A stretch of 64,000 bases of DNA, taken from an uncultured Bacillales bacterium. GTDB taxonomy: Bacteria; Bacillota_I; Bacilli_A; RFN20; CAG-826. Of this stretch, positions 4,587 to 54,766 are shown piece after piece. The position numbers and the translations under genes were made by a program. Location of the stretch: the NCBI GenBank assembly GCA_937892755.1, contig CALBHT010000086.1, positions 11 to 64,010 on the forward strand, in the 5' to 3' direction. Position 1 is the stretch's first letter. Each line of letters opens with the position of its first letter. Under the pieces are notes generated by a model, which worked only from the letters and a program-made list of their open reading frames with translations, was not told the origin of the DNA and did not search any database.

Positions 4587-4612
4587 TTGTTTTTGTAGTT
4601 TATTCAGTAAAA

Positions 4613-34824: not shown

Positions 34825-36936
34825 ATGACGAATGCAAAAAGCAAAAAGACAATTGCCCTATTCGCTCTTGCCGCGACTGGTTTATTAAGCTTGGCCTCAT
34901 GCGGCCCTAGTGGGGAAACGTCGGCCCCTTCTTCGGAAGGCGGTTCCCTTTCGCCTATTTCAAGTAGAGACCATACAAACGACGACACCTATTTAGAGGT
35001 CACCTTGAAGAATACGGATATTCCAGAAGGCGGAACGTTCTTCGATAGTGCAAAACCGACTGTCACATATGTGAATAACAAAACGGGGAAACGTCAAGAC
35101 GCCACCAACTGGCAGTTCCGCACTTCTTATTCGATTGTTGACCGAAACGACAGCAGCAAAACTTATAAAGCAGGTGATGCCTTGCCCGCTGGCTTATATC
35201 GAGCGACGATCTCAAACGAAGAAGATTTGATCGAGACTCAAATCGATTTCTCCGTCAGTCAAAAGGAAGTCGCCGTCGCTAGTGAGGGAAATGGTTATAA
35301 GACCGTCTCCGCCTCCAGTATGGCGAAATATGCCGTTAATAAGCATAAGGAACTTGGCGCACTCAAAGCGGGAAAATTCCCATCCTTAGGCACCCCAAAG
35401 ATCCTTGTGGTCCCCGTCGAATTTGCAAAAGACAAAAACGGGAACGCCTCTTCTGGAGCGTTATTCGAAAACCGCGATGATGTCTTAAGAACGCTAGACG
35501 AGGCTTTCTTCGGGAGCACGAAGCATAGTAAATACCAATCCGTTTCAAAATGGGAATCCCTCAGCTCCTATTATTACAAGAGCAGCTATGGGAAACTCGA
35601 TATCGGAGGAGAAGTCACGCCCGTGTACACCTACACAGGTGCTTCTACGAAAGACTTCGAGCGGAACAATTTGGATAAGCTCATTAACGATATCGTCAAT
35701 TGGCTGAAAACATCGCAAAACTACGATATGAAGGATTACGATTACGACAAAGATGGCTATATTGATGGAATCGAAGTCGTATACATGACCGATCAAATCA
35801 CCCCAGGGGCGAGCGGTGTCAATACGGGCAATGACCTTTGGTGGAATTTCTGCACTGTTCTCAATAGTCAAGCTCCGCAGATGGGCAATCCAGATAACCC
35901 AGTTCCACAACGCTATTTCTGGAGCCGCTGGGATTACGTAAAGAACAATTATTACGCCAAGAACAATGATGGACAGCCCTGCGCAGACGCACACACCATC
36001 GTTCATGAAACCGGCCACATGATGGGTTTGAACGATTATTATTCCTACGACAAAACCGATAGCGGCGCTCAGCTTGGTGGCCCAGCCGGCGGCGTGGATA
36101 TGATGGATATGAACGTCGGTGATCATAACGCCTATAGCAAAATGGCTTATAACTGGGTCGATGCAAAAGTCATCGACGGAAGCTCGAGCAACTTCAAGAT
36201 CACGCTCAATAGTTACACCGACACCGGCGACTTCCTCGTCCTAAGAAACACAAGCGAAGACAAATGGAACGAGACGCCATGGGATGAATATCTGCTTCTT
36301 GAATACTACACCCCCACTGGCGTGAACGAAGCCGATAGCCAAGGTTACCCCGAATGGCAAGTTGCTTCTTCCACAGGTTCTAACGCCTATGGCCATGGCG
36401 GCACTTACGAGCATCCAGGCTTACAAGTATTCCACGTCGATTCGCGCTTAGCTTCGACGAAAGGCAAATGGGATAGTGCCAACAAAAAGCCAGTATCGAA
36501 CACTTCTAAGTTCGGATATACGGACAATCTCTATGATGAGCAAACTATCAATGAGGAAAATGGCACTTACGAAAGCGCCTTCACCTCTCCGCATAGCAAC
36601 ACCCCTTCACGAAGCGTTGATGTCGATAACAACAAGAGCGAAAACGGCGCTTATCGTGAACTCCATGCCATCTTCTCAAGTGGCGTGAATGGCCTGGACG
36701 GAACAGGCTATTATAGTAGCTTCGGCAACACCAAAAACCTCTTTGGGAAAAGTGACTACAAATACAAAGGCAGTGAAGATAATCTCTATGGTGGAAGTAA
36801 TTACAGCAACTACAGAATGCGCGATTTCTTCCCGAACGATTTGCTCTTCGATGATAAAACAAGTTTGAATTGGACGTTCAATGTCGTCGAGCAAACCGAT
36901 AGTTCCATCACACTGCACTTTATTGAGAATAAATAA
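34825..36936 (+). CDS. Surface zinc-metalloprotease lipoprotein, M6/InhA-like, third paralog.
   Basis: SD AAAGGAG. Lipobox LLSLASCGP. TIVHETGHMMGLNDYYSYDK (HExxHxxGxxD). KILVVPVEFAKD. Confidence 0.75.
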   Translation: MTNAKSKKTIALFALAATGLLSLASCGPSGETSAPSSEGGSLSPISSRDHTNDDTYLEVTLKNTDIPEGGTFFDSAKPTVTYVNNKTGKRQDATNWQFRTSYSIVDRNDSSKTYKAGDALPAGLYRATISNEEDLIETQIDFSVSQKEVAVASEGNGYKTVSASSMAKYAVNKHKELGALKAGKFPSLGTPKILVVPVEFAKDKNGNASSGALFENRDDVLRTLDEAFFGSTKHSKYQSVSKWESLSSYYYKSSYGKLDIGGEVTPVYTYTGASTKDFERNNLDKLINDIVNWLKTSQNYDMKDYDYDKDGYIDGIEVVYMTDQITPGASGVNTGNDLWWNFCTVLNSQAPQMGNPDNPVPQRYFWSRWDYVKNNYYAKNNDGQPCADAHTIVHETGHMMGLNDYYSYDKTDSGAQLGGPAGGVDMMDMNVGDHNAYSKMAYNWVDAKVIDGSSSNFKITLNSYTDTGDFLVLRNTSEDKWNETPWDEYLLLEYYTPTGVNEADSQGYPEWQVASSTGSNAYGHGGTYEHPGLQVFHVDSRLASTKGKWDSANKKPVSNTSKFGYTDNLYDEQTINEENGTYESAFTSPHSNTPSRSVDVDNNKSENGAYRELHAIFSSGVNGLDGTGYYSSFGNTKNLFGKSDYKYKGSEDNLYGGSNYSNYRMRDFFPNDLLFDDKTSLNWTFNVVEQTDSSITLHFIENK

Positions 36937-36964
36937 GATTATATAGGAAAGGAAAATACATATT

Positions 36965-38782
36965 ATGAAAAGAAAATTATTAGCATTATCGCTCTTAGCC
37001 ATCACCGGAACACTCACTCTCGTTTCATGCGGTGGCGAATCGAGCAGTAGCGAGTCTAGCAGCATCGCTTCCGTCGCTGGAAGAATCGTGCTCGACACAA
37101 AAGTCCCTGCCGAAATTGAAGTCAACAAGACGCTCAATCTCGAGGATTATGTCACGGTTACCAAAGTCGATACATGGTCGCTTGAAAGCGAGAACGATAA
37201 TATCTCCATCGACGGTCATATCATTAAAGGAATCGACTATGGCGACTTCACGGTCATGATCATCGCTGGAACGACAAAAAAAGCCTATAAAGGCACTGTC
37301 GTGAGTAAGGCGAAGATGGCATTCAACGAGAAAGTCACCGCATTGGATAGCAATTATACTGCCTATACCCTTGCCGTAGGAACCAATACTTCCACAACCT
37401 ATGATACGTCCCTAGGTATCAATTTCCACAACGAAAAGTATTTCGCTACTCAAACCAAAAATAATTACACTCCCACGAAATCTTGGACTGGCTATGTGGA
37501 AGCGCCAAACGATGTCACTTACTCGATGAGTTTTAGCGCGAATGCCGAAGACGGAAAAAACCCCACCGATTTGGTTGTCGACCCAGGCATGCAAAGAAGC
37601 CTCGACAATTATTATTTAGGCAACCCCATCTCGTTTAAATCCACCGATTTCACGGAAATCTTAGACAAAGATGGCTCGCCAACAGGTGTTTATGCCCTCA
37701 CCAACCGCAACACGAATGATTACGGGAATACCTTAGTCGGAGATTTCGGGCATTTCTCCGCTGGCTTGTCCTTAGATAGCTATGTGGAAAGCTACCAAGC
37801 GACTTTCTGGGCCGAGCTAGGCGAGAATGAAGACGGAACATTAACTGGCGACATTATCTTCCACCTTGTGGGAACGAGCGCAGGACAGACAGGGTTACTT
37901 GGAATAGCCATCGATATTTACGATGTCGGAACCACCAAAATCGATGTGGTCGAGAATTGGCTTGCATCCCCTTCTTACCCGGCTCCATACGACGTTTCCT
38001 CACTTACGACCGTTTTTGACAAAATGAATTCCACAAAGAATTACACTGTAGAAAGCAGCGGCTACTGGCTGAACGCAAACACTGGCGAAAAAGCAAGCGT
38101 TGCCCAAGCGACCGCGGCGACAAGTAGCGCGAATGGCTTATTCTTCACTTACGATGTGACCACTTACGTAACCGAAAATGATTATTATTCTAGAATCGAA
38201 GCCGTTTCCGATGCCGAGGCTTATGGAGCGGGCGCTTTCACCTCTGGGCAAGTCAACGCTGCCGTCGTGAGAGATAACACCTTCTATTTGGTTGATGGAA
38301 CCTACGCAAATGGCACCACCACTTGGGGCACCCCAACTGCTTCTAGCGAAATCGTTGCGAAAGAAGGCGAGACCATCAGCATTTGGAATAGCACCTTCTC
38401 TAGCTCTTACTTCACCGCAGAGAATCTAGCAAAAGCCAACTGGAACAGCAAAGCCGATGCCGAAGATGGCACATCTGCTTTCTATTTCGACGAAATGGGT
38501 GAGGACGAAGGCGCTCTCATCACTTCTAGTATGCTACAGATCGGGAATTTCATCGGTGCCACCATTTTCTCGAATTTCACCGCCAATTACGCGCAGTATC
38601 AATATAACTATTGGGCGACGAATGCCGATGGTTCCCTCACTTTGGCATCCTTCATTCCATGGGGAAATGTCGGAGAATACACCTTCTATTATTTCATGGA
38701 GAGCACGTTTAAAAACATTGGCTCGACATCGATTCCAGCAGAAGCGAACCTCAGTGGAATCAATATTCCTACAAACGCATAA
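36965..38782 (+). CDS. Hypothetical surface lipoprotein.
   Basis: Signal MKRKLLALSLLAITGTLTLVSCGG followed by a Ser-rich linker. Confidence 0.65.
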   Translation: MKRKLLALSLLAITGTLTLVSCGGESSSSESSSIASVAGRIVLDTKVPAEIEVNKTLNLEDYVTVTKVDTWSLESENDNISIDGHIIKGIDYGDFTVMIIAGTTKKAYKGTVVSKAKMAFNEKVTALDSNYTAYTLAVGTNTSTTYDTSLGINFHNEKYFATQTKNNYTPTKSWTGYVEAPNDVTYSMSFSANAEDGKNPTDLVVDPGMQRSLDNYYLGNPISFKSTDFTEILDKDGSPTGVYALTNRNTNDYGNTLVGDFGHFSAGLSLDSYVESYQATFWAELGENEDGTLTGDIIFHLVGTSAGQTGLLGIAIDIYDVGTTKIDVVENWLASPSYPAPYDVSSLTTVFDKMNSTKNYTVESSGYWLNANTGEKASVAQATAATSSANGLFFTYDVTTYVTENDYYSRIEAVSDAEAYGAGAFTSGQVNAAVVRDNTFYLVDGTYANGTTTWGTPTASSEIVAKEGETISIWNSTFSSSYFTAENLAKANWNSKADAEDGTSAFYFDEMGEDEGALITSSMLQIGNFIGATIFSNFTANYAQYQYNYWATNADGSLTLASFIPWGNVGEYTFYYFMESTFKNIGSTSIPAEANLSGINIPTNA

Positions 38783-38885
38783 TCTCTTTTCGCTTCCTCA
38801 AAAGCTCGCCATTCATCCTGACGGGCTTTTTTATTTCAGTTACCAATTTCCTTAAATAATGATTGAAAGAAAATAAATCCATTGC

Positions 38886-40256
38886 ATGATTATCACCATG
38901 ATGAAAAAGAAAATATTGTTTTTGCTGCTATCTCCCGCCTTGCTCCTTACTTCTTGTGGAGGAAATGAGACGTCCACTATTTTTTCAAACTCTTCGGGCT
39001 ACCTCACTTCACTTCCTAGCGATTACAACGCTTCAGTGAAGAATTACCTAAAAGCATTGAAAGCGGTGCGGAATTATTCCATTGCCGAAGTTGTTTCTTC
39101 CTCTCAGACAAGCGCCATCAATTTCATTCAGATTTCCTACACGGAAAATGCTTTTTATTACTCTTTTGGCGAAAATAGTTATGGATATATCGCCGCCAAA
39201 GAAGGCGTATATGGCGTCTCTTTAAAACATGACGAACTCATCGGAAGCGAACTTTTGTTCGATGAGAAGAATAAGCCTTATCAGTCTTTTTGGAATAGTG
39301 ATCTCGTAACGAGCTTCGCTTCCTTCGATGATGAGCAAATCAATTCTTTGGAAGATGGCGTGAAAGCCGATATCAAAGGGAAGAAAAACAAGGTCGCTTT
39401 GCTTTCGATGCTTGGCCTAGGCACCAATTACTACGCCTCTATCAATAAGCTCACCGGTTCCATCACCAAATCGGGAAAACTGCTCATTACGTTAAGCGTC
39501 AGCAATGCGAGTGCTGGCACCATCACCATTGAGGCAACCGTGGATTCGCTACTAGAAACCACGATTCCAGAAATTAACGATTATTTATCTAGTGGCGGCA
39601 CTTACTACACCGTGGATGAAGATTTATCGAAAGCGCGCACCATCATGCGCAATAATAACTACACGCATTATTACTATGAAGGAAATAGAAAAGTAGGAAC
39701 GGAATATTTCCACCAAGATTATTATTTCGTCAATTGGGACAGTGCATATGTCGCGAGTAGTGGCCAAATTCTTCTTAGTCAAGGGCTTATCGGCATCGAT
39801 CACAAAAAAGACCCAAATAACGGCGCTTTGCTCAATGGCAGTTATTTGGTGAGCATGAATGGAAACACACTGCAAATATCTTTATCCGCCCCCTATAACA
39901 ATGATCCCGATATTCCTTCGGTTTACCACTATCCAAGCTTCCTTTCTCTTTGGGACGATCTTCAATATTTCGAGGAAGATGTCATTCCTAGCGACATGGA
40001 CGCTAGTTACGTCACGGATGATGCGTTCATCATGAATGATTTTGTGACCAATTTCTCGCTTGAAAATAGCACTGCAAACGTCACATTAACAAAGTTACAT
40101 ATGGGCTTTGCCGATATTGACAATAAACAAAATAAACAAACCATCCGCTTTGAATTAGAAACCAGTGGCGGCACCCTTTCTTACGATTTTGTGAATTTCG
40201 GGAGCACAAATATCCCTGCTTTTGACCAATTTCTTTCCTCTTTGGTCGATCAATAA
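38886..40256 (+). CDS. Hypothetical surface lipoprotein. Alternative starts at 38898 or 38901.
   Basis: MMKKKILFLLLSPALLLTSCGG lipobox. No strong SD. Confidence 0.6.
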   Translation: MIITMMKKKILFLLLSPALLLTSCGGNETSTIFSNSSGYLTSLPSDYNASVKNYLKALKAVRNYSIAEVVSSSQTSAINFIQISYTENAFYYSFGENSYGYIAAKEGVYGVSLKHDELIGSELLFDEKNKPYQSFWNSDLVTSFASFDDEQINSLEDGVKADIKGKKNKVALLSMLGLGTNYYASINKLTGSITKSGKLLITLSVSNASAGTITIEATVDSLLETTIPEINDYLSSGGTYYTVDEDLSKARTIMRNNNYTHYYYEGNRKVGTEYFHQDYYFVNWDSAYVASSGQILLSQGLIGIDHKKDPNNGALLNGSYLVSMNGNTLQISLSAPYNNDPDIPSVYHYPSFLSLWDDLQYFEEDVIPSDMDASYVTDDAFIMNDFVTNFSLENSTANVTLTKLHMGFADIDNKQNKQTIRFELETSGGTLSYDFVNFGSTNIPAFDQFLSSLVDQ

Positions 40257-40284
40257 TTCTTGATTTATCGTTTTCTTCTCTCTA

Positions 40285-40318
40285 AAAGCGGATTGCTTTG
40301 CCTTCCGCTTTTTTTATA
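40285..40318 (+). terminator. Rho-independent terminator of the lipoprotein gene.
   Basis: Stem agcgga/tccgct followed by a T8 run. Confidence 0.6.
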
Positions 40319-40371
40319 AGTTACAAACAGTTATTCGAGAAGTTTTCGCTTCAAATTCTTTACCATAAATG

Positions 40372-40421
40372 CGTTTATATTTTTCGGGAATGAGATAAAA
40401 ATCTGATTTGGCGAAAAATAT
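40372..40421. repeat. Left 50-bp direct repeat flanking the AAA+ ATPase cassette.
   Basis: cgtttatatttttcgggaatgagataaaaatctgatttggcgaaaaatat is identical to the repeat at 42030-42079. Confidence 0.85.
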
Positions 40422-40462
40422 GCAATAAAACATAACCATGTATTTCCAAAATGGTGTTATAA

Positions 40463-40506
40463 TTTTCGGGAATGAGATAAAAAGTTTAATTTGCGAAAAT
40501 TATAAT
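40463..40506. repeat. Degenerate third copy of the direct repeat, with a TATAAT hexamer just upstream of the ATPase RBS.
   Basis: ttttcgggaatgagataaaaagtttaatttgcgaaaattataat. Confidence 0.6.
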
Positions 40507-40524
40507 TCGTTTTGGAGGCATGTC

Positions 40525-41973
40525 ATGCTGATTGGAAGAAAACGCGAAATTGATGAATTGAACGCTTTGTATTCGAGCGATGAAGCAGAGCTCGTGGCCC
40601 TTTATGGCAGAAGGCGTGTTGGAAAGACGTATTTGATTAATGAGACTTTTAAAGGGCGTTTTTCATTTATGCATGCAGGACTATCGCCTATCGAAGTTTC
40701 TAAAAACGGAGCAGCCAAAGCAACGAGAATGAAAGAACAACTCTTACATTTCTATCATTCGCTTCTTACGTTTGGAATGAAGCCATCGAAATGCCCAACC
40801 TCTTGGATTGAAGCCTTCTACATGCTTGAGACTCTTTTGTCTTCAAAATGCGGAGGCGAAAAGCAAGTTGTGTTCTTTGACGAAATTCAATGGATGGATA
40901 CTCCAAAGTCGGGCTTTATGACCGGTTTTGAAGCGTTTTGGAACGGATGGGCTTGCGGAAGGCACAATATTATGGTTATCGTCTGTGGCAGTTCTACTTC
41001 ATGGGTTTTGGACAAATTAATCAACAACCATGGCGGTCTTTACAATCGAGTCACAAAGCAAATTCGCTTAAATCCATTTTCGTTGTCAGAATGTGAGGAA
41101 TATCTAATCAAAAACGGATTCAATTATTCCCGGTACGACATAGTGCAAACTTATATGGTGTTCGGAGGCATCCCCTATTATTTAAAGCATCTCGATAGGA
41201 GTAAGAGTTTCGCGCAGAACATCGATGATTTGTTTTTCGAAGGCAACGCACCATTTCAAAGCGAATTCGATCGTCTGTTCCAATCCATTTTTGTCAATCC
41301 AGAAACCATGCAGGCGATTATCAAGGCGATTGGTTCGAAAAAGAGCGGATTAACGCGCCAAGAATTACTAGATTCTCTAAAAATACAGGACAGCGGTTCC
41401 TTTTCGAAATTCCTCAAAGCGCTCATGGAAGGTGGTTTTATTTTTAAATATGTTCCATTTGGTGCCCATAAACGAGAAGAACGTTTCAAACTCATTGACC
41501 CGTTTTGCCTTTTCTATATCCATTTTTACGAAAAACGAGGAAGGAAGGATAATTGGTCAAATAACATCGACTCCCAAGGCATCACCGTTTGGAGAGGAAT
41601 CGCGTTTGAAAACGTGTGTTTCAATCATATCAAACAAATTAAAAGCAAATTGGGTATTTCCGGAGTCTCCACGAATGAATCTCTTTGGCTAAAAAAAGGA
41701 GACAACAACGAGGAAGGTACGCAAATCGATTTGATTATCGATAGAAAAGATAACATTATCGATTTGTGTGAAGCAAAGTTCTGGAGTGACGAATTCGTTA
41801 TCGACAAAAATTATCATTTTTCCTTAGTTAGGCGAAAAGCAATTGTTCAAAAAAACGTTTCCAAGAAAAAGACAGTGCAAAACATTTTGATATCCACATA
41901 CGGCTTGAGAAAAAACGAATATTCTTGGGACTTTTCTTCGATAGTCACTATGGATGATCTTTTCAAAGACTGA
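40525..41973 (+). CDS. AAA+ ATPase of the COG1672 type (archaeal-ATPase-like N-domain plus a C-terminal PD-(D/E)xK / DUF234-like domain).
   Basis: LIGRKREIDELNALY...LVALYGRRRVGKTYL with a P-loop. C-terminal IDLIIDRKDNIIDLCEAKF. SD GGAGG 6 nt upstream. TGA stop. Confidence 0.8.
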   Translation: MLIGRKREIDELNALYSSDEAELVALYGRRRVGKTYLINETFKGRFSFMHAGLSPIEVSKNGAAKATRMKEQLLHFYHSLLTFGMKPSKCPTSWIEAFYMLETLLSSKCGGEKQVVFFDEIQWMDTPKSGFMTGFEAFWNGWACGRHNIMVIVCGSSTSWVLDKLINNHGGLYNRVTKQIRLNPFSLSECEEYLIKNGFNYSRYDIVQTYMVFGGIPYYLKHLDRSKSFAQNIDDLFFEGNAPFQSEFDRLFQSIFVNPETMQAIIKAIGSKKSGLTRQELLDSLKIQDSGSFSKFLKALMEGGFIFKYVPFGAHKREERFKLIDPFCLFYIHFYEKRGRKDNWSNNIDSQGITVWRGIAFENVCFNHIKQIKSKLGISGVSTNESLWLKKGDNNEEGTQIDLIIDRKDNIIDLCEAKFWSDEFVIDKNYHFSLVRRKAIVQKNVSKKKTVQNILISTYGLRKNEYSWDFSSIVTMDDLFKD

Positions 41974-42029
41974 GCCAGTATTCAGACTTTTAAAGCACAC
42001 ACCAAAGCTATTTTTATCATTTGTAGAAA

Positions 42030-42079
42030 CGTTTATATTTTTCGGGAATGAGATAAAAATCTGATTTGGCGAAAAATAT
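42030..42079. repeat. Right 50-bp direct repeat flanking the AAA+ ATPase cassette.
   Basis: Identical to 40372-40421. Confidence 0.85.
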
Positions 42080-42097
42080 AGCAAACACTGAAAGAAT

Positions 42098-42130
42098 CAA
42101 AAAAAGCCACCCCGATTACTCGTAGTGGCC
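42098..42130 (-). terminator. Terminator downstream of the 898-aa lipoprotein gene.
   Basis: Stem gccac/gtggc. An A7 run on the plus strand gives a U-tract on the minus transcript. Confidence 0.55.
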
Positions 42131-42147
42131 AATAGAACATGGCTTAA

Positions 42148-44844
42148 TTAAGCGTCAAGAGTGAACCATTCGTATTCCGCTGGACCATCTTCTTCCTCTG
42201 GATATCCGACAAGATAGTTCGTTTCTGTTTCTCCAGCGCCAGAATAAGTGCTTTCACAAGCGTAGATGCCAAGAAGCCCATAGTCCTCAAGCGTGGCCCC
42301 GCCAATCTCAAAGTCGGTCATCGTCAAGGAGTCTCCACTAGAACCGGACTTCGTCATTTCGGCGCTCGCCAAGGATAGAAGCATCGATCCGCTATCGCCA
42401 ACGCCATAGCGATAATAGAAATGATAAGTGGTACCGCTGATGGTTAATGTTCCCTTCTTGTAAGTCAATCCGTTGATTGTTTTCCCGTCCTCATCGCTGA
42501 AGGCAAGCTTAGCAGCGACAAAGGTTCCTTCCATATAGCGAGGATCGGTATCTTTGACACCATCTTTGGTGACGAAGTCATACGCGGTCCAGCTTGTCCC
42601 CACTAAAGAAGAAGGAAGCAAAGACGGGGTTCCAGGGTTGATGGTCAAAGTAATCTCGCTTTCAAGAGTTGGGTCCCCTTTATCCTTCACGATAATCGTC
42701 TCGGTCAACTTCGTATCGGTTGAAACCGCGCTCGCGTCAATGGTGAGCACATAGGCGGGGAAGGAAGCGATGGTCGAAACGGTAGGAACGACCATTCCAT
42801 CGCTCAAAGTAAGCTTGATATTCGAATTAGAGCAAGATAGCTCTGGACGAATCGCGCAATCAGCTGGGGACCCCCAAAGATACACGTTCATCCGTCTACC
42901 CGCTTTCATGGTAACCGAAGTGGAAGTAGGGACGTCGTCTTCCGTTTCATTGCCATAAGCCCAAACGTAATACCCTTTAGGAGAAGGAGCTTCATCGACG
43001 GTGACATTCGTTTTGATGGTGACATCATTCGTGGAATGATTGCCGATCGTGATTTCCGTCGTCCCTGGGGCATTCGCGGTCCATTCTAATGGGCGAGAGA
43101 CGTTTTTCCCAACGATGGAACTATCATTAGAAGCAACAATGCCGTATTCCCAACTATCTAGCGCTGTAATAGGCGCATAATCAAAATGTAACGTCGTCGT
43201 ATAACCCACGCTATCATCGTCAATTGATTTCGTATTCGGATCGCGACGCGCTTCATCGAGCACTTCCTTGAATTTGACGTGGCCCTCTTCCTTTGTTTTG
43301 TCTTTATTACTCTTCACTTTCAAATTGGAGATAGACGTGATGAAGTATGGGGCGGTATCAAAATCAATTGGCGTCGACAAAGGTTCGCCATACCCATAAG
43401 AATAAGAAGAAGATTCGATGGTTTTCCCTTCCATTCCTGGTTTTACGGACCCGCCATTAGAAGCGGCATCATTGAAATTGAAATTGCTCTCCGTGTAATA
43501 AGTCTCTTCATAAGAACCACTTTTCAAGGTGCCGTCTGCGTTGATATTGATGGTAATCGCATATTCATAGCGAGTGTGGGCATTATTGCTATCCGCGTAG
43601 TTCTTCCAGCTATTGACGGTTGTGACGAAGGAGCCATCATCGTTTTTCTTCGCATCGAATTTGCGGTCACACGCTTTGAGTTCATCCTCAATCACGTACC
43701 CGACAGAATATCCGTACTGCATCCCCATATTGATACTATGGAGCTCATGAGACGGCGTTTCGATATCGCGCGTCGCCTCGAAAAGCGTTTTCTCATAATG
43801 GGAATTGCTCACTTCGTCCACAATCGCGTATTTTCCAGAATATTTCACCGTATCGCTTAGTTTTGTCCGGTCAAAAGCATTGCCATCAGCATCGGTGCCA
43901 CTTTCGATATATTCGTCGACGACGGTGAAAACGTTATCTTTTACGGCTTTATATACGAATGCTGTTTTATCGGTGGAGATATTCTTTGCTTTGGCAATGG
44001 AGCCGTCTAAGTGCAAGTCCCAAGAATACTGAACAAGCGTCCTAGAATTCCGGTATTCGACGTGATTGAGTCCCTTCACGTTATAAGCCCCACCATCAAG
44101 TACATTTCTTCCGGCGTAAGAACCGCAGAAATAAGAACCGATTTCATCGGCGTTGGAAGGTGCTTTAAGGATACCGGTTCGATAAACGGAAATCGGTTTT
44201 TCGCCTCTCCGCAAGTCGAAAGTGACTTCATAAATCGCGTTTCCTCCTAATTCGAATTGGGTGACTTTGGAGGAAGAAACATGCACGCTATCAATATCGG
44301 CGTAACTCAAATCGAAGTCAACCGCGCCATATCCATATTGATTGCTACCGACATTGACAAGCAATTTCGTCGCGTTTTCGCAAGTGATATTCGCTTTATA
44401 CGAACCATCTTCTTGCTTAGCGAAAACCGCGGCCATATCGCCGCTTAAGGTGACATCACCAACCGCATTCAAACTTGCGGTGATGGAGACGGGGCTATCG
44501 CCCATCGCGAAGGAATAAGTGGTGTCGTTGACTTTTGTACATTCCACTTTGTTCGCGTAAAGAGCAAGGAGCACATATCCTTCATCGAGAGTGACATTCA
44601 CGATGACCGTTTCCCCTTTCTTCGCTTTCGTTTTGCTGAACGTGAGGTTGACTCCGACGCCTGTACGGTCGATAATCGCATATTCTGTCTCTGGGGTGAT
44701 GCCGCTTGTAGATGAACTCCCACCGCCTGATTCGCTTGTGCTCACGCTTTGGGATTGTTCTTTTTCTGAGGAAGCGCCATCCCCGCAACCCGCTAACAAT
44801 CCAGCGCATGCAAGAATGGTCAATAGTTTCACTGAGTTTTTCAT
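42148..44844 (-). CDS. Large hypothetical surface lipoprotein containing the shared ~90-aa repeat domain.
   Basis: Lipobox LLAGCGDG. The domain reads YAIIDRTGVGVNLTFSKTKAKKGETVIVNVT...TYSFAMGDSPVSI. Confidence 0.7.
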   Translation of the reverse strand: MKNSVKLLTILACAGLLAGCGDGASSEKEQSQSVSTSESGGGSSSTSGITPETEYAIIDRTGVGVNLTFSKTKAKKGETVIVNVTLDEGYVLLALYANKVECTKVNDTTYSFAMGDSPVSITASLNAVGDVTLSGDMAAVFAKQEDGSYKANITCENATKLLVNVGSNQYGYGAVDFDLSYADIDSVHVSSSKVTQFELGGNAIYEVTFDLRRGEKPISVYRTGILKAPSNADEIGSYFCGSYAGRNVLDGGAYNVKGLNHVEYRNSRTLVQYSWDLHLDGSIAKAKNISTDKTAFVYKAVKDNVFTVVDEYIESGTDADGNAFDRTKLSDTVKYSGKYAIVDEVSNSHYEKTLFEATRDIETPSHELHSINMGMQYGYSVGYVIEDELKACDRKFDAKKNDDGSFVTTVNSWKNYADSNNAHTRYEYAITININADGTLKSGSYEETYYTESNFNFNDAASNGGSVKPGMEGKTIESSSYSYGYGEPLSTPIDFDTAPYFITSISNLKVKSNKDKTKEEGHVKFKEVLDEARRDPNTKSIDDDSVGYTTTLHFDYAPITALDSWEYGIVASNDSSIVGKNVSRPLEWTANAPGTTEITIGNHSTNDVTIKTNVTVDEAPSPKGYYVWAYGNETEDDVPTSTSVTMKAGRRMNVYLWGSPADCAIRPELSCSNSNIKLTLSDGMVVPTVSTIASFPAYVLTIDASAVSTDTKLTETIIVKDKGDPTLESEITLTINPGTPSLLPSSLVGTSWTAYDFVTKDGVKDTDPRYMEGTFVAAKLAFSDEDGKTINGLTYKKGTLTISGTTYHFYYRYGVGDSGSMLLSLASAEMTKSGSSGDSLTMTDFEIGGATLEDYGLLGIYACESTYSGAGETETNYLVGYPEEEDGPAEYEWFTLDA

Positions 44845-44868
44845 AGAGTATTTTTCCCTTTCTTCTCA

Positions 44869-45675
44869 TTAAGCTTCCGCTTGAGGGACAAAAATCCCAA
44901 GCAAAGCATTACGCGTATGGGCATGGAGCCAATCGCCTGTGTTCCAAACCGCGAAGTAATCAAATACGAAATCGGTTAATTTCCATTCGGATACGCGATA
45001 GATATACCAATGTTCATGTTCTTCTGATATGGATGAATAAGCGCCATCGTAAGCGTAAGTGAACGCTTCGTTATTCAGCGTGACGCCGCCGGATTCGGTT
45101 CCACTAATATATCCTTTCGCCCCTTCCATGAACACAATTTCCAATTGCCCGGTAAAAGAAGCGAATTGTTTGTGACTCCCCCAGTGATCGGTGTCAATAA
45201 GAAGCGCGTCCACTTCTTCTTTGCTCATTTTCTTTTTTACTTGGATTAGCTTTCGGTAATGGATGATCGTGTCGCCATCTTCAATAATGAGATGACTTTT
45301 CCCAGCCTTATGGGTAAGAAGCGTATACGAGGTTCCAGATTCGCTTTTTTTCACAGTGAGGACATTAGGGTTGTCTGTATAGACATTAACGACGCCAGAA
45401 GAATTGTTTTTGAGTGTGAAGGAAATGCCATATTCACTATCGCTCGCTAAGGACATTCCGACGTTGATGTCCCCTAAATAACCGGAAATTGGAACGGAAA
45501 TATCCACACTGATATCGGAAAGCTCAGGAAGCTCCGTATTATCGATATCCCCGATACTGACACTAGAAGAGATTGTCTCGGCGCTTGACTCGTTATTACT
45601 CATGCCGTTTCCTTGCTCGCCACACCCCATCAATAGGAATGAAGTAACCGCAAGAAACAAGCACTTAGATTTCAT
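44869..45675 (-). CDS. Hypothetical lipoprotein with a Big_2-like segment.
   Basis: Lipobox LLMGCGEQ. VNVYTDNPNVLTVKKSESGTSYTLLTHKAGKSHLII. Confidence 0.6.
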   Translation of the reverse strand: MKSKCLFLAVTSFLLMGCGEQGNGMSNNESSAETISSSVSIGDIDNTELPELSDISVDISVPISGYLGDINVGMSLASDSEYGISFTLKNNSSGVVNVYTDNPNVLTVKKSESGTSYTLLTHKAGKSHLIIEDGDTIIHYRKLIQVKKKMSKEEVDALLIDTDHWGSHKQFASFTGQLEIVFMEGAKGYISGTESGGVTLNNEAFTYAYDGAYSSISEEHEHWYIYRVSEWKLTDFVFDYFAVWNTGDWLHAHTRNALLGIFVPQAEA

Positions 45676-45698
45676 ATTGTTAACCTCGTTTTGATCCA

Positions 45699-45737
45699 GA
45701 CAAGGAATATCCTTGTAGCCTTGTCAATATATAGACA
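45699..45737. promoter_or_regulatory. Two adjacent perfect inverted repeats, candidate operator sites, upstream of the lipoprotein operon.
   Basis: acaagga-ata-tccttgt at 45699-45715 and ttgtc-aatatata-gacaa at 45720-45737. Confidence 0.25.
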
Positions 45738-45810
45738 AAGTAAAGAATTTCAATCGTTAAATTCATTTTTTGCTTATTTCATGATTTTGCTATGGAAACG
45801 CAAAGGGATA

Positions 45811-45843
45811 AAGAGAAAACGAGTTCCCCATCTGGACTCGTTT
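45811..45843 (-). terminator. Terminator downstream of the 757-aa lipoprotein gene.
   Basis: Stem aaacgagt/actcgttt with a U-rich tail in the minus sense. Confidence 0.5.
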
Positions 45844-45855
45844 CCTTGTTACGTT

Positions 45856-48129
45856 CTATTCGGTGTACACGCTAAATTTCGCGTTTGCGAAATACATGCC
45901 AGTTGTTCCGCCTTTTAGTTGAAAATAACCAACCCCAGAACTTTTTGGAACGTAAGTAAATGTGACAGAAACGCCTTCTGTTCGCGAAGAACTATAGATT
46001 TTCCCATTGATCGTGTTCCCATTTACGACTTTATAATCGATGTCTTTTTGTTCATAGGAACCATTGAGGCATTTGCAGTCATATTTCAATTCGTTGGCAT
46101 GAAATGAAAGAATGAATTTTTCCATGGAATCATCGTCACTGCTACTCCATTGCGACCAGCCACTGAACTTATATCCGGCCCATTCAGGAAGTGCAGTAGC
46201 TTCTTTCTCACTTGTCACGACGAATGTCTTCGTTGATGCGTCAATCGTTCCATTTATCGTTTTTGAATTACTCGTTAATGTGATTTCATTCGCCGTTAAT
46301 ACATAGGCAAACGTCTCTCCATCGTAAGTGGCGCCCCCCATACCATCAAGATGAAGTGTTTTCCCGCCTTCGGTGAGATAATCGCCATATTCTTCACCTA
46401 AAAGGATGCGATTGCCGCTTCCGCCATCTCCTTGCGAGCCGACTTTTAGTAGCGAAGTGCCGTTCTTATTTACAATAAACAAGGCTTCCGCGTCGCTTAC
46501 ATACGTGCCCGCTAGCATTTCGATCTCAACGCCGAAAGAGACCGAATTTCTACCGTTTTCGCGTTTCACTAGCACATTGTCGTAAATGGCTCCATCGCGA
46601 TAAAAACAGATTACGCCATAAACGATTTCGTTTACCTTGAATTGCGTCGCTTTCACTTGGTAAAGACTATTGGTGTCATTCGCGTTTTCCTTCTTTACCG
46701 CCACATAAAGATAACTCGTCGTGTTCGCTGAACCCTCTAAATAGGTATCGCCGACAATGGCTTTCCCATCGTAAAGGAAACTTCCTGAGCTAGAAGAAAC
46801 ACCATTGGATAATTTTGCATTTCCTTCCCCTTCCTTTGCGTCCGCTTCTGAAATAAGACGTTCCTCGGTCTTCTCCCCTTTTGTCATAGAAAGAAGGCCT
46901 GAGGGCTGAACACGCAAAGAATAGCCATCAGTGAATGACGTCTTGTCCATATTTCCACCATTGGACAAATCAAGCATCAGATAATCCCCAAGGAAACCAT
47001 AATCCGCATATGCCGTAGTATCGTATTCGGTAATGGTTACCGTGAGATTTTCAAATTTCGGCGCCCGGAAATGGTAAAAGCCGTCCGCATCGTCATCAAT
47101 GGATTTGCTGATATCTTCAGTCGTGATGGTTCCGCCGTTATTTTTATAAGAATAAGCGACAGTTTTAATGGAATAACGTCCATCTACATTATTCTCTTTC
47201 GGTCTCGCTAGCACGTAAACCTCGCTATAAGGAACGACAAGATTGTCGTCAATCGTCGTCACTTTATCCTCTTTATATAGTGTCAACGAAAAATGATCGC
47301 TTTCCACTTTTGTGATGGCAATGGGCATATCTTCTTTTTCGATACGAATGGAACTATCCTTCGCCGGCATAAGGAAAGTGAAGGACATTTGCCCCTTTAA
47401 ATCGATGACTTCGCCATTCACGGAAACGCTCGTCAATAGATAATCGCCTGACGCTTGGAGTTCCACTTTTATGGTCGCACCAAATTCGGCCGTCTTATAA
47501 GTGATTTCGCTAGTCTCTTCCCCTTCTTCCGTGTCTCCACTACCTTCCGTAATGGTATCCAAATCGACAAAATCCGCCGCTCCGACTTTCTTTTGTTTAA
47601 TAGAGGCGATGAAGTCCCCCGGATCACCCGCTGTGAGCTTATAAGAAAGACGATTTGTGGTGATCGTGATGCTCACCCCACGTTTTGGCATGATAAAAGA
47701 ATAGACACCGTTTTCCCCTTTCGTCAAAACGACTTCGTTCACTCCAGCGACCGCTTTGACATCGCTAATTGCAAAACCATTCTCCGCTATCAAAGTGAAA
47801 GTGACATTCGCTCCCGCTTCATATTTATCTTCTAACCCTGATAAGCGAACGCCTTCCTCTTTCGTAACCTCGACGGAATACGTAGCCGCTTCGCGATTAG
47901 ATGAGGAAGCATTCGAACTATCTTCCGCTTTGCTAGAAGATTGAGCGATGCTAGATGAAGCCTCACTTGAAGAATTCGTAGTGCTCGTATCGCCTAAGGA
48001 GGAAACTGTAGACGCCTCGACACTACTTTCTTTGGATTCTGCTTTGCTAGTAGTAGCAGGCATCGAGCATCCGCTTAAAAGCAAAAGCGAGGATAAGGCT
48101 ACAACGAATAATTTTGATTTTTTGCACAT
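45856..48129 (-). CDS. Large hypothetical surface lipoprotein with tandem ~90-aa repeat domains.
   Basis: Lipobox LLLSGCSM. Repeats such as YSVEVTKEEGVRLSGLEDKYEAGANVTFTLIAENGFAISDVKAVAGVNEVVLTKGENGVYSFIMPKRGVSITI. Confidence 0.7.
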   Translation of the reverse strand: MCKKSKLFVVALSSLLLLSGCSMPATTSKAESKESSVEASTVSSLGDTSTTNSSSEASSSIAQSSSKAEDSSNASSSNREAATYSVEVTKEEGVRLSGLEDKYEAGANVTFTLIAENGFAISDVKAVAGVNEVVLTKGENGVYSFIMPKRGVSITITTNRLSYKLTAGDPGDFIASIKQKKVGAADFVDLDTITEGSGDTEEGEETSEITYKTAEFGATIKVELQASGDYLLTSVSVNGEVIDLKGQMSFTFLMPAKDSSIRIEKEDMPIAITKVESDHFSLTLYKEDKVTTIDDNLVVPYSEVYVLARPKENNVDGRYSIKTVAYSYKNNGGTITTEDISKSIDDDADGFYHFRAPKFENLTVTITEYDTTAYADYGFLGDYLMLDLSNGGNMDKTSFTDGYSLRVQPSGLLSMTKGEKTEERLISEADAKEGEGNAKLSNGVSSSSGSFLYDGKAIVGDTYLEGSANTTSYLYVAVKKENANDTNSLYQVKATQFKVNEIVYGVICFYRDGAIYDNVLVKRENGRNSVSFGVEIEMLAGTYVSDAEALFIVNKNGTSLLKVGSQGDGGSGNRILLGEEYGDYLTEGGKTLHLDGMGGATYDGETFAYVLTANEITLTSNSKTINGTIDASTKTFVVTSEKEATALPEWAGYKFSGWSQWSSSDDDSMEKFILSFHANELKYDCKCLNGSYEQKDIDYKVVNGNTINGKIYSSSRTEGVSVTFTYVPKSSGVGYFQLKGGTTGMYFANAKFSVYTE

Positions 48130-50140: not shown

Positions 50141-53100
50141 ATGAAAAACGGAAAATCAATGAAACTCGTTCTTGCGGCAGTCGCCTTACTCGGCGGATTG
50201 TCGCTAGCAAGCTGCGGAGGAAATGGCAATAACAATTCCTCTGAGGCAAGTCGCGTATCGGCTCACTTCCAGGGAGAGGGCGAGCCAGCCACAACGCTAG
50301 GGCAAGACGGGGACACCTATACCGATACCGCGACGAACGTGAATTACACCAAAATCAATGGAGCTTGGGTAAAAAACACAGATTCCAACCATTTTGAGGG
50401 GGCTGGAGTGCCAGATAATTCCATTGGAAAAAACGGAGATACCTATACCGACACAAGCACTGGTAACGAATATACCAAGCAAAACGGCTATTGGGTCAAA
50501 ACGAAAGAAGGCGACAACGTCAACAAAGTCACTGTCAGCTTCGATTTGAATGGCGGCATTATGAGCAATGGTGATGCGACCGTCACCCCGCAAACCATCG
50601 ATCAAGGAAGTTGGGCGCTTGATCCAGGCGATCCAGTCAAAACGCACTGCAATTTCTTAGGCTGGTATGCAGGAAGCGCGAAATGGGATTTCAATACCCC
50701 GGTTTATAAAGACCTTACCCTTATTGCGAAATGGAGTGTCAACGAAGACGAAAAAGTCACCATTACTATCAATCCAGGCAATGGCGGCGAAAGTTATACG
50801 GTTGATACTTTCGAGGGGGATTCCCCACGTCTTGATATTCCTTCCAAAGAAGGTTATTCATTCAAAGGGTGGTATATCGATGGCCAAGAAAGCAAGCCTT
50901 GGACCGGCATTGTCCGTGCGGATGAACTCAATGGTCACACCATCATCGCTTTGTTCGACAAGTCCGCATTCAATTTCAAATTTAAAACAAACGAGGATGG
51001 CACCCTTACCATCACCGGCTTATTGAATATCAATAGCGCTCTTGCTGATATTCCTAGCAGTATTGGTGGCAAAAAGGTCACCGCGATTGGGGAAACGGCT
51101 TTCCAAAGCAGAATCAGCTTGATTCAAGTGAATATCCCCGATAGCGTCACTTCTATCGACCCACGCGCGTTCTTAGGCGCAAGAAAACTCTCGACAATTC
51201 TCGTAAGCGGTTCGAACATCGCTTATAAATCCGAGAATGGTGTTCTTTATTCTCGCGATGGCAATACGCTTGTCTATTGCCCACCAAAGAACACCCAAAG
51301 CACTTTTGACGTTCCTTCTGGCGTCACGAAAATCGGCGATTACGCTTTCTATGGACAAGGGGATGAAGGCATCACCGGCGTGAATCTCCCTGAGGGGCTA
51401 GTTGAAATCGGAAACCGCGCTTTCTATGGCATCAATAATAGTTCCTTCACTTCCATCAGTTTCCCGAACTCTCTTAAGAAGATCGGCGATTACGCCTTTG
51501 CTTATGTCGCTTCTTCTTCAGAAGGAGTCCTCCAGCAAGTTAGTTGGGGAAGCGGCGTTGAAGAAATCGGTTATGCCGCCTTCTTCGGCCAATATTTCAA
51601 GAATGAACTCGTCATTCCTTCCAGCGTAAAGATCATTCGTGAGCGTGCTTTCTCTAACTGCAGCGCGATTACCAAAATCACACTTCCGGCCGGTATTACA
51701 CTCGTGGAGCCTGGCTTTGCCGCGTATGCGCAAGGCATTATGGAAATCGCCATCGCTGGAACGGGCGCAAACGACTATTACAAAGTCGTCAATAACACCC
51801 TTTATTCGGCAGATGGGAAGATTTTAGTTTATAGCCCAGCTAACCGCACTGATTCTACTTCCATCGAAGTTCCTACTGGTGTCACGCAAATCGCAGATTA
51901 TGCTTTCTACTGCAATAAATTCGTGGAAAGCATCACACTTCCTAATACCGTCACTTCCTTAGGAAAAGAATCTTTCCGTGAAGTGTATAAATTAAGTGAA
52001 TTTGTAATGCCAAATAGCGTGCTCACGATGGGTGAAGATTGCTTCTCTGGCTGCACATATATGACGAATTTCACCATCGGAACTGGACTCACAAGACTCC
52101 CCCGCTATTCGTTAAGCGAGACGGGTTTGACTCAAATCAATATTCCGTCCAACATCGTCACCATCGATGATAGCGTCTTCTATAACTGCACGAAGCTAGC
52201 GACTATCAATTTCGCCGAAGGCCTAGAAGAAATCGGTGCTGCCGCTTTCTATATCAGCGCTTATACTGGCGATGAGGAAATTGCCGTTGCTCAGGCTGGC
52301 TCCATTCGAACGCTAGACTTCCCACTTTCATTAAAGAAAATCGGAAGCCGTGCGTTTGCAAATCAAACCAAACTCACCAGCGTCAAATTCGGTAATATCC
52401 AAGAAATGGGCACCGCTGTCTTCGATAGCGCCTCCTCTTTGTCACGTATCAGCAAAAAGACTGGCGCCACCACGATTGAAATCGACGATGCTTCCGTCCT
52501 TTATACCGCCGATCATAAAAAACTGCTCTTTGCGATTACGAATGGCTTAGTTGGCGAACTCACTATGAACAGTGCTACGGAAGAAATCGCCCCTTACGCT
52601 TTCTATGGTTGCAAAGAGATTACAAAAATCACGCTCCCAAGCGGACTGAAGAAAATCGGCGAAGGCGCTTTCGAGAGCGCGGTGAAATCAAGCGACAATA
52701 CGGATTGGACGCTCTTCATTCCGGCTTCTGTCACCGAAATCGGTGAAGCGGCATTCTGTTTCACCAACAAAGTGAGCAAGCTTGAATTCGAGGCAGGTAG
52801 CAAGCTTAAAACAATTGGCAAAGACGCCTTCTGCATGCTTGATATGACAAGTGTCACTTTGCCTGATTCTTTGGAAACCATTGGCGAATCCGCCTTCTCC
52901 AGCAATATGAAACTCACAAATCTCACCCTTGGGAAAGGATTAAAGAGCATCGGTGCGGAAGCGTTTGTCCGCTGCCGCAACCTAACAGGGGACATCGCTC
53001 TTCCAAAGACCCTCACTTCTATTGGGGCGAATGCCTTTGGCGATACAAAAGTAAGTAGCTTCACCTTGGAAGAAGGAAACGCGAGCTTCGCTTTAGAAGG

Positions 53101-53467
53101 CGGCTTCCTTATGGACATAACCAAAGAGCATCTCATTGCTTACTTAGGCAAGCAAGATGGCACCAATATCAGCTTACCTTCTACCGTCAAATACATTGAT
53201 GATTATGCGATGGCTGGCACAACTGCCAAAGTGGTCAATCTGCCAAGCGGCCTCCTTTCAATCGGAGAATGCGCATTTATGGACTCAACGAGCGTTCGTT
53301 TGCTCGACATCCCTGCTTCCGTCACGAATATCGGAGCGAGCGCCTTCCGTGGATGGTCTTCTTCTCAACAAATCAAGATTCATAAGAGCCAAGAAGCCGC
53401 AGCAATCGCTTTCGATGACGAATATCTGAATAGTTGCTATGCGGCCGTCACTTATGTCGCGGAGTAA
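50141..53467 (+). CDS. Giant surface lipoprotein with BspA-type leucine-rich repeats and an Flg_new (Listeria-Bacteroides) repeat.
   Basis: Lipobox LSLASCGG. Duplicated N-terminal 35-aa repeat. FLGWY Flg_new motif. More than 20 LRR_5-like units, for example VTKIGDYAFYG, LKKIGEGAFES, LETIGESAFSS. Confidence 0.75.
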   Translation: MKNGKSMKLVLAAVALLGGLSLASCGGNGNNNSSEASRVSAHFQGEGEPATTLGQDGDTYTDTATNVNYTKINGAWVKNTDSNHFEGAGVPDNSIGKNGDTYTDTSTGNEYTKQNGYWVKTKEGDNVNKVTVSFDLNGGIMSNGDATVTPQTIDQGSWALDPGDPVKTHCNFLGWYAGSAKWDFNTPVYKDLTLIAKWSVNEDEKVTITINPGNGGESYTVDTFEGDSPRLDIPSKEGYSFKGWYIDGQESKPWTGIVRADELNGHTIIALFDKSAFNFKFKTNEDGTLTITGLLNINSALADIPSSIGGKKVTAIGETAFQSRISLIQVNIPDSVTSIDPRAFLGARKLSTILVSGSNIAYKSENGVLYSRDGNTLVYCPPKNTQSTFDVPSGVTKIGDYAFYGQGDEGITGVNLPEGLVEIGNRAFYGINNSSFTSISFPNSLKKIGDYAFAYVASSSEGVLQQVSWGSGVEEIGYAAFFGQYFKNELVIPSSVKIIRERAFSNCSAITKITLPAGITLVEPGFAAYAQGIMEIAIAGTGANDYYKVVNNTLYSADGKILVYSPANRTDSTSIEVPTGVTQIADYAFYCNKFVESITLPNTVTSLGKESFREVYKLSEFVMPNSVLTMGEDCFSGCTYMTNFTIGTGLTRLPRYSLSETGLTQINIPSNIVTIDDSVFYNCTKLATINFAEGLEEIGAAAFYISAYTGDEEIAVAQAGSIRTLDFPLSLKKIGSRAFANQTKLTSVKFGNIQEMGTAVFDSASSLSRISKKTGATTIEIDDASVLYTADHKKLLFAITNGLVGELTMNSATEEIAPYAFYGCKEITKITLPSGLKKIGEGAFESAVKSSDNTDWTLFIPASVTEIGEAAFCFTNKVSKLEFEAGSKLKTIGKDAFCMLDMTSVTLPDSLETIGESAFSSNMKLTNLTLGKGLKSIGAEAFVRCRNLTGDIALPKTLTSIGANAFGDTKVSSFTLEEGNASFALEGGFLMDITKEHLIAYLGKQDGTNISLPSTVKYIDDYAMAGTTAKVVNLPSGLLSIGECAFMDSTSVRLLDIPASVTNIGASAFRGWSSSQQIKIHKSQEAAAIAFDDEYLNSCYAAVTYVAE

Positions 53468-53470
53468 AAT

Positions 53471-54586: not shown

Positions 54587-54602
54587 TTTATCATGTATCA
54601 AA

Positions 54603-54751: not shown

Positions 54752-54766
54752 ATCTTTGAAAACGAA

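Follow-up and report, generated by a model that had tools for sequence, protein, structure and literature searches.

A palindrome at the promoters of PDC-S27-type ATPase genes, present in three copies around one such gene of an uncultured Bacillales bacterium

Why should a single ATPase gene, set among lipoprotein genes, be enclosed by two identical copies of a 50-bp sequence? The question is raised by a 64,000-nucleotide stretch of DNA from an uncultured Bacillales bacterium (GenBank assembly GCA_937892755.1, contig CALBHT010000086.1, positions 11 to 64,010), which was analyzed as a whole and is called the window (W) below. In it, a gene for a 482-amino-acid ATPase with a nuclease-like C-terminus, a further member of the known candidate-defence family PDC-S27, lies between positions 40372-40421 and 42030-42079, which form a direct repeat with 100% identity. 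A preliminary description of the locus had noticed this repeat, and regarded it as a sign of recent site-specific or homologous insertion or excision, while naming a mobile cassette, a defence-related module, a regulator-binding site, and an att-like site reused elsewhere in the genome as possible meanings. To follow the element beyond the window, we compared it with other contigs and loci, which are designated by L-numbers (L001, L148, etc.), and we refer to the three palindromic copies described below as H1, H2, and H3. With moderate confidence, we favor a joint model in which the palindromes are operators of a long-resident module, and the two outer copies were made identical by gene conversion from H3 to H1. 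Neither promoter palindromes nor flanking repeats of PDC-S27 genes were mentioned in the literature that we searched, and as far as that literature goes, a conserved, promoter-embedded palindrome for this family, here triplicated and bracketing the gene, is new.

Palindromes at the promoters of PDC-S27-type genes

In addition to the perfect pair, the locus contains a third copy of the repeat, in register at 40454-40503 and 80% identical to the other two, which is the same element as the degenerate copy previously placed at 40463-40506. All three copies share the 21-mer TTTTCGGGAATGAGATAAAAA, which occurs 3 times in 64 kb when 0.03 occurrences are expected by chance. Each copy is an imperfect palindrome of 45-48 nt, with perfect outer arms of 10-12 bp and additional inner pairs (z -4.5 to -5.8), and H2 differs from H1 and H3 on both arms (T>A / A>T) without losing the symmetry. 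H1 begins 82 bp upstream of H2, a position that is kept in L148, L149, and L003, and the spacing of the two is 82-85 bp in five loci. The same architecture was recovered in independent assemblies (L014, with 2 mismatches in 13.4 kb, as well as L001, L002, and L016).

The palindrome is also a property of the gene family. We surveyed 80 metagenomic and 7 viral or proviral loci carrying relatives of the ATPase at 36-58% identity (36-57% for the 7 viral or proviral contigs). Perfect inverted repeats, defined by arms of 10 or more and loops of 8-30, reached a density of 3.74 per kb within 150 nt upstream of family genes, compared to 0.21 per kb elsewhere in the loci. When one mismatch was allowed, 73 of 84 family loci had a palindrome within 150 nt upstream, compared to 14 of 122 upstream regions of neighboring genes. 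By these two measures, the enrichment over background was ~8-fold to 18-fold, and it extended over two phyla. Total length was nearly constant (~44-55 nt), and the arms varied by lineage yet remained complementary (TTATAATTTTCGG, TTTTATTCAGCGG, TATTTTGCCG, TATATTCTGCCGCAA, and TTTATTCCGCTACGAAAT). When 18 close copies were aligned, pairing held for 89.5% of cells, compared to 37-54% with slid partners, and both sides had changed in 7 of 16 pairs, values that were reached by none of 500 shuffles. Most family loci have the upstream palindrome only, located exactly on the promoter, and H3 is missing from many of them.

The closest homolog outside the window's species group, P0002, is 83% identical to the window ATPase, and its gene is located on L003 in a different genome context. 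Its cassette follows the same plan, with two upstream palindromes 82 bp apart and one downstream, and has the same arms (TATAATTTTCGGGA / TCCCGAAAATTATA) with different loops, its H1 appearing inverted (loop) relative to its H3. Palindromes on both sides of the ATPase gene, with different arm sequences, were also seen in L032, L099, and L026; in L032 the two outer copies (distal upstream and downstream) match at 89% over 47 nt and resemble the promoter copy less, and in L099 a 120-nt repeat with two palindromes lies on each side of the gene.

These comparisons bear on the possibility that the palindromes are non-functional scars, that is, remnants of an old duplication or insertion which were homogenized in the window by chance. 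Scars would be compatible with the absence of H3 from many family loci, and with a perfect identity that is specific to the window's lineage and is explained by gene conversion. They would not be expected to retain position and palindromic symmetry through compensatory changes, as all three copies do in W, L148, L149, and L003, or to be enriched upstream of family genes in two phyla, and we regard this explanation as very improbable.

A generic intergenic motif was rejected, since the 3 copies in the window are all at the ATPase gene. When 185,579 species genomes were searched with the loop-independent pattern TATAWTTTTCGGGA-N(10-30)-CGAAAAWTAT, the matches were the ATPase loci of two metagenome-assembled genome (MAG) species, and 4 apparently unrelated single sites, whose neighboring genes were unexamined. 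The proposal of an att-like site that is reused elsewhere gained no support from this search, and the window contains neither further copies nor, among open reading frames of 150 amino acids or more, a recombinase. A looser pattern, applied to viral contigs, returned the ATPase locus L103, a contig-end match in L154, and a match in a giant-virus MAG that is probably due to chance. The palindrome in L154 (9414-9460) has the same arm type (TATATTTTTCG...CGAAAAATATA). It is separated by 168 nt from the end of this 9.6-kb viral contig, and no start of an ATPase gene can be seen in that interval.

The position of the palindromes relative to promoter elements suggests what they might do. In loci of the Firmicutes type (W, L148, L149, and L003), the right arm of the proximal palindrome has TATAAT at its end, with 7-10 nt between this hexamer and GGAGG. 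The preliminary description had pointed to this hexamer next to the ribosome-binding site (RBS), and it is indeed present in the window, but a better candidate, which is conserved, is an extended -10 sequence, TGnTATAAT, in the left arm of H2, which is kept in the same four loci and is represented in H1 and H3 without the TGn. In loci of the Bacteroidota type, a -7 box (TAnnTTTG) lies inside the palindrome in ~20 loci, with the palindrome ending 4-16 nt before ATG, while a second class has 12-35 nt between the end of the palindrome and this box, which lies downstream. If the promoter is inside the palindrome, the left arm would not be transcribed, which argues for a function at the level of DNA. 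The minus strand of the window also has a promoter-like site at 40499-40526 (11 of 12 matches; ATGACA, 16 nt, TATAAT), leading antisense out of the ATPase gene at its 5' end, with the right arm of the palindrome as its -10.

Some properties of the locus would suit a role in RNA instead, with H2 as a hairpin in the 5' untranslated region that controls translation or stability, H3 as a 3' stabilizer or weak terminator, and H1 as an insulator against read-through from upstream. The sense-strand hairpins are strong (-12.5 to -16.6 kcal/mol), those of the antisense strand being weaker in this lineage because the inner pairs are G.U; an extended pairing of CCAAAAUGG with CGUUUUGG covers the RBS in the window; and the ATPase gene lacks a canonical terminator. 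However, transcripts would lack the left arm if they start from the extended -10 in H2 or from the Bacteroidota -7 box inside the palindrome, and the flank that pairs with the RBS is not conserved in L148, L149, or L003. There is no U-run after H3, so it is not a canonical terminator. Folding energies revealed no strand bias across the family (Wilcoxon p = 0.135), and no Rfam family matched, the best matches in Rfam 15 scoring 13-28 bits when gathering thresholds are 44-245. RBS sequestration by an extended H2 stem was rejected, because it is not conserved in orthologs and would lie upstream of the predicted transcription start, and sense-strand RNA structure across the family was rejected as not significant. 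We consider the RNA explanation improbable. Overlap with promoters of different grammar in two phyla, together with the lack of strand bias and of an Rfam match, points to operators that act at the DNA level, so that the regulator-binding site, mentioned only as an alternative in the preliminary description, has become the reading that we favor.

In the operator model, H2 would be the primary operator, lying across the core promoter of the ATPase gene, and H1 (~8 helical turns upstream) and H3 (just past the stop codon) would serve as auxiliary copies. Because the arms co-vary with lineage, and the ATPase gene is the only gene that moves along with them, the winged helix of the ATPase is the most economical candidate for the binder, and the operators are most likely occupied by the ATPase itself. 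We infer that such binding would lead to tight autorepression, possibly via looping between the sites. Recombination between direct copies, which deletes the gene and leaves a solo palindrome, would be a by-product of this arrangement.

Several observations weigh against this interpretation. The start of transcription is a prediction, and a second TATAAT is present in the right arm of H2. The half-sites are ~36-38 bp apart, center to center, which is unusual for a simple dimeric repressor, and in the lineage of the window, folding is better for the plus strand than for the minus strand. The downstream copy is conserved (W, L148, L149, L003, L026, L032, and L099), and is not explained by the operator model alone. 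Furthermore, direct repeats flank 11 of 82 family genes, compared to 2 of 132 neighbors (Fisher p = 6e-4), and some of these flanking repeats are unrelated to the palindrome (L063 and L086).

Age of the module and origin of its perfect repeat

If the 50-bp repeat reflected a recent insertion, the cassette should be absent from the orthologous sites of distant relatives. These sites were filled. In L148 and L149/L150, the ATPase gene and all three palindromes are in the same places between the same lipoprotein neighbors, and because DNA identity to the window over ~9 kb is only 79% for L148 and 75% for L149, the insertion must be old; recent insertion, the central proposal of the preliminary description, is ruled out by this synteny. 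The ATPase has diverged in step with its flanks, with amino acid identities to the window of 91.5% (L148) and 85.9% (L149), compared to 74-88% for the flanking lipoproteins, and the ratio of synonymous to non-synonymous differing codons in the ATPase gene is 112:41 (L148) and 174:68 (L149). These sequence comparisons suggest that the cassette was inherited with its flanks, under purifying selection, since before the split of these lineages. The att-like, recent-insertion reading is wrong in timing, and probably wrong in mechanism.

The identity of H1 and H3 then requires a separate explanation. In L148 and L149, H1 and H3 are 76-84% alike, whereas in the window they are identical, and between W and L148 the orthologous copies are 82% (H1) and 86% (H3) identical. 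Since the two copies differ in the relatives, the perfect 50 bp of the window would represent recent homogenization rather than a fresh att or target duplication. The repeat in the window has the left flank AGAAACGTTTATATTTTTCGGG, which is found at H3 in L149, and the perfect identity is best explained if H3 was the donor in a recent gene conversion of H1, both being old paralogous sites.

The age of the locus also affects the likelihood that the palindromes are recombination sites, similar to integron attC sites or the ends of IS200/IS605 elements, with the unit from H1 to H3 moved by an enzyme acting in trans or by its own ATPase-nuclease, and with solo palindromes as the empty sites. The unit does behave as a discrete module, as expected of the mobile cassette proposed earlier: it is present in a second genomic context, and DNA homology between the cassettes of the window and L003 fades at the outer palindromes. 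H1 is closer to H3 than to H2 in W, L149, and L032, the cassette has a GC content of 38% in surroundings of ~45%, direct repeats flank family genes 10 times more often than their neighbors, and single-palindrome configurations exist at both loci (L015 and L022, below). In L063 there is even an array, in which a repeat, an AAA_14 gene, a second repeat, a PDC-S27 gene, and a third repeat follow one another. Nevertheless, the cassette has stayed at one site across lineages that are 75-79% identical in DNA; there is no recombinase or transposase among window open reading frames (ORFs) of 150 amino acids or more, and no extra hairpin copy in the window or in genomes carrying the hairpin; most family loci have only the upstream palindrome, right on the promoter; H1 of L003 appears inverted relative to H3; the consensus of attC is absent; and the two empty sites were both seen in MAGs, whose assembly could have skipped a loop bounded by repeats. 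Mobility based on hairpins is, in our estimation, unlikely. Derivation of the cassette from a plasmid or phage was rejected, as blastn gave no match in either a plasmid or a phage collection, although more distant relatives are present on the 7 viral or proviral contigs mentioned above.

A broader version of this idea, which we consider improbable, is that Firmicutes and Bacteroidota possess an undescribed, hairpin-dependent cassette system, of which PDC-S27-type and related AAA+ ATPase-nuclease genes are the cargo or even the engine, with the palindrome serving both as promoter-operator and as recombination site. Insertion would duplicate or recombine the hairpin or the 3' end of a gene, giving rise to repeat-bounded single-gene cassettes and to arrays like that of L063, and excision would leave solo palindromes such as those of L015 and L022.

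In two family loci, L063 and L086, the flanking repeat coincides with the 3' end of the convergent gene downstream, which also speaks for a cassette mechanism. In L063 (1330-4730), a 113-nt repeat occurs three times (1330, 2754, and 4454, with 76%, 100%, and 95% identity) and bounds two successive single-gene units, the first with an AAA_14 ATPase gene (1546-2739) and the second with the PDC-S27 gene (2995-4434). The repeat corresponds to the 3' end of a 92-amino-acid minus-strand ORF (4452-4730), and the array has the appearance of serial insertion at one gene end. In L086 (2825-4786), a 48-nt direct repeat with 100% identity brackets the ATPase gene, and its downstream copy overlaps the 3' end of a convergent ORF at 4743-5456.

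The preliminary description had suggested looking for strains in which a single repeat copy joins the two lipoprotein genes, and a contig of this kind was found: L015 (GCA_002478085.1) has one copy between the two genes, and flanks that are 100% identical to the window. It belongs to the same population as the window, however, and to a MAG that may have skipped the repeat-bounded loop. The second case is L022 (Bacillales bacterium UBA6865, ~92% identical to L003), with a single palindrome whose left flank is orthologous to that of H1 in L003, and whose loop and right flank are orthologous to H3. Both could be the result of deletion between direct copies, but both MAGs were probably built by short-word assembly, in which such a loop can be skipped with the same outcome and emerges as a contig of its own, as in L001 and L002 (below). 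Of the two, L022 is more credible as an empty site, since H1 and H3 of L003 share only 14-17 nt. Assemblies with k=119, and SPAdes-style (NODE_) contigs, have the filled site, and look-ups of the 898- and 268-amino-acid neighbors for an independent empty-site contig gave nothing useful.

Logan assemblies with k=31 contain the cassette (window 40392-42079) as a contig of its own (L001 and L002). The 1688-nt contig L001 has the same 30 nt at both ends, equivalent to a cycle of 1658 nt. As evidence for an excised circle these contigs were rejected, because their lengths (1688 = 1658 + 30; 1668 = 1608 + 60) are equally expected from an integrated repeat pair in a k=31 graph. The practical consequence is that perfect repeats around such genes can cause assemblies to drop the gene, creating false empty sites and possibly leading to an undercount in MAG surveys. 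Many family members in the protein search were on contigs of only 1.6-2.5 kb, and repeat-bounded copies may be common, and dropped from MAGs.

Comparison of L022 with L003 (UBA4691) revealed one additional difference, at L003 4552-9803, where 5.2 kb is missing from L022, comprising the 5' part of feoB, feoA, an LRR_5 gene, and an AbiLi-like pair. The junction (GTGCATAAGAA followed by CAAAATG) has no repeat, and feoB is left truncated.

The ATPase-nuclease and its neighborhood

The product of the gene has the P-loop YGRRRVGKT and the motif QIDLIIDRKDNIIDLCEAK, and the residues concerned (G28-T35, D119/E120, D402, E416, and K418) are invariant across 14 relatives. Residues 2-480 match positions 4-473 of the 474-position PADLOC profile for PDC-S27 (PDLC04984; E = 1.5e-190, 632 bits), and Pfam matches are to ATPase_2 (1.4e-13) and AAA_14. 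The layout consists of an AAA+ ATPase domain (residues ~1-225; Walker A 28-35, Walker B 119-120), a helical and winged-helix region (~226-340), and a PD-(D/E)xK-like domain (~345-482; D402, E416, and K418).

An AlphaFold2 model of the protein (predicted local distance difference test score, pLDDT, 82) was matched by Foldseek to 2qen (P. abyssi PABY2304), archaeal and eukaryotic Orc1/Cdc6, Apaf-1, plant NRC, and Avs3. The C-terminal 140 residues of the model follow an alpha-beta-beta-beta-alpha-beta pattern, with the invariant D402 and E416-x-K418, and have weak matches to DUF4143, DUF234, RE_TdeIII, and NERD; profile searches of the PDB with this domain returned nothing relevant, and modeling the domain alone from a single sequence was unusable (pLDDT 36). 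Judging from the model, the protein combines an Orc1/Cdc6-like and STAND-like (signal transduction ATPases with numerous domains) AAA+ ATPase, a winged helix, and, at the C-terminus, a nuclease-like domain with D...ExK.

The PDC-S27 family is large, with more than 7,900 matches among the candidates scored. It has been described as an ATPase fused to PD-(D/E)xK, found by "guilt by embedding" and not validated (PMC12988326), and is listed among untested defence candidates (bioRxiv 10.1101/2024.01.29.577857). By its sequence, the gene of the window is placed in a candidate, unproven anti-phage defence family, in agreement with the defence-related module considered at the outset, and its 83% identical homolog is surrounded by AbiL-like, PDC-S41/AbiO-like, and Schlafen-like genes. 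Weighing against a defence function, one PDC-S27 representative, challenged with T4, T5, and T7 in E. coli B, was not reported as one of the four systems that protected (PMC12881386).

The neighborhood of the homolog (L003, 7986-15605) resembles a defence island, with an AbiLi-like ATPase (2e-25) and a small ORF, a PDC-S41/AbiO/Nhi-like SLFN-g3 helicase with a MazG-like gene, and an SLFN_AlbA_2/HATPase_c_4 protein. In the window, all genes neighboring the cassette, from 34825 to 48129, begin with lipobox signal peptides, and the unit does lie, as first described, between the terminators of two convergent lipoprotein genes, both of which fold as a hairpin followed by a U-run (Table 1). Farther away, the surroundings (64-2811, 6984-8978, and 50141-58897) are rich in surface proteins, including a 915-amino-acid protein with collagen triple-helix repeats and Flg_new_2, a 664-amino-acid protein with a staphylococcal-nuclease domain, and large proteins of the BspA-type leucine-rich repeat (LRR_5) and Flg_new kinds. 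There are also two Opp-like ABC (ATP-binding cassette) systems with very long SBP_bac_5 lipoproteins, and fus/tuf are at the right end.

Table 1. Positions of features at the ATPase locus, in window coordinates.
Feature	Position	Strand	Remarks
Intrinsic terminator of upstream lipoprotein gene (38886-40256)	40284-40319	+	9-bp stem and U-run, -13.3 kcal/mol, z -4.4; left edge of cassette gap
H1, repeat copy 1; arms ATATTTTTCG (40377-40386) / CGAAAAATAT (40412-40421)	40372-40421	+	Hairpin -14.2 kcal/mol, z -4.5
H2, promoter-proximal palindrome; perfect 12-bp arms 40457-40468 / 40494-40505	40454-40506	+	80% identical to H1/H3
Extended -10, TGTTATAAT, in H2 left arm	40455-40463	+	Conserved
TATAAT in H2 right arm	40501-40506	+	7 nt before RBS
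RBS, GGAGG, 6 nt ahead of ATG	40514-40518	+	Read from sequence; conserved in L148, L149, L003
PDC-S27-type gene, 482 amino acids	40525-41973	+	ATG start at 40525
H3, repeat copy 2; arms 42034-42044 / 42070-42080; 56 nt past stop codon	42030-42079	+	-16.6 kcal/mol, z -5.2
Intrinsic terminator of downstream convergent lipoprotein gene (42148-44844, minus)	42098-42130	-	Stem and U7, -14.4 kcal/mol, z -3.6; right edge of gap

Comparison with known systems

A single gene bounded by imperfect palindromes of ~50 bp in direct orientation, with defence-type cargo and a possible solo-site state, brings to mind integron cassettes and their attC sites, including clusters of attC sites lacking integron-integrases (CALINs). 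Integron cassettes are usually promoterless, whereas the palindrome of the window overlaps the promoter of its own gene, and the locus has remained syntenic over a long divergence. The attC boxes R'' (RYYYAAC) and R' (GTTRRRY) do not fit the repeat, which starts with CGTTTATA and ends with AAAATAT, on either strand. Neither an integrase nor an attC array was seen, there being no recombinase match in Pfam for the ORFs above the same size limit, and only three repeat copies.

A short unit with equally oriented hairpins near its two termini is a feature shared with IS200/IS605 elements, their transposase-less derivatives, the palindrome-associated transposable elements (PATEs), and repetitive extragenic palindromic (REP) sequences or miniature inverted-repeat transposable elements (MITEs). 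In contrast to such elements, the unit in the window is not multi-copy (3 copies in 64 kb, all at one gene), no Y1 transposase is present in the 64 kb, a third, internal hairpin lies on the promoter, and the pattern in the family is an upstream hairpin only.

Compared to PDC-S27 as it has been described, the gene of the window has a full-length match to the hidden Markov model, the same architecture (Walker A/B and D...ExK), and an 83% homolog in a defence-island-like neighborhood, and rumen and gut MAGs, in which the family is abundant, are also the source of the relatives found here. The difference lies in the promoter palindromes and flanking repeats, for which the searched literature has no counterpart. 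Among candidate defence genes of archaea and of gut and rumen bacteria, the family ranks with the most abundant, and in some lineages, as in the window, the palindrome is triplicated and brackets the gene.

For the arrangement of the sites, a close parallel is repression of lac, which employs one primary and two auxiliary operators, O3 lying 92 bp upstream and O2 ~400 bp downstream. The window likewise has a promoter site, an upstream site in helical phase at a distance of ~82 bp, and a site downstream of the start, but this third site is beyond the whole gene, ~1.6 kb away, and the sites are 48-bp palindromes.

For the protein, a close parallel is archaeal Orc1/Cdc6 (structures 2qby and 2v1u), which has inverted origin recognition box (ORB) elements beside its own gene. 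The two share the AAA+ and winged-helix fold, as detected by Foldseek, and inverted repeats around an AT-rich spacer immediately upstream of their own gene. They differ in the nuclease-like C-terminal domain of the window protein and in that nothing at this locus points to a replication origin, and the resemblance is one of fold and layout only. A promoter palindrome that co-varies with lineage nevertheless provides a testable handle on the idea that an ORC-like ATPase-nuclease may bind its own palindromic, cruciform-prone DNA, either for silencing or for sensing foreign DNA.

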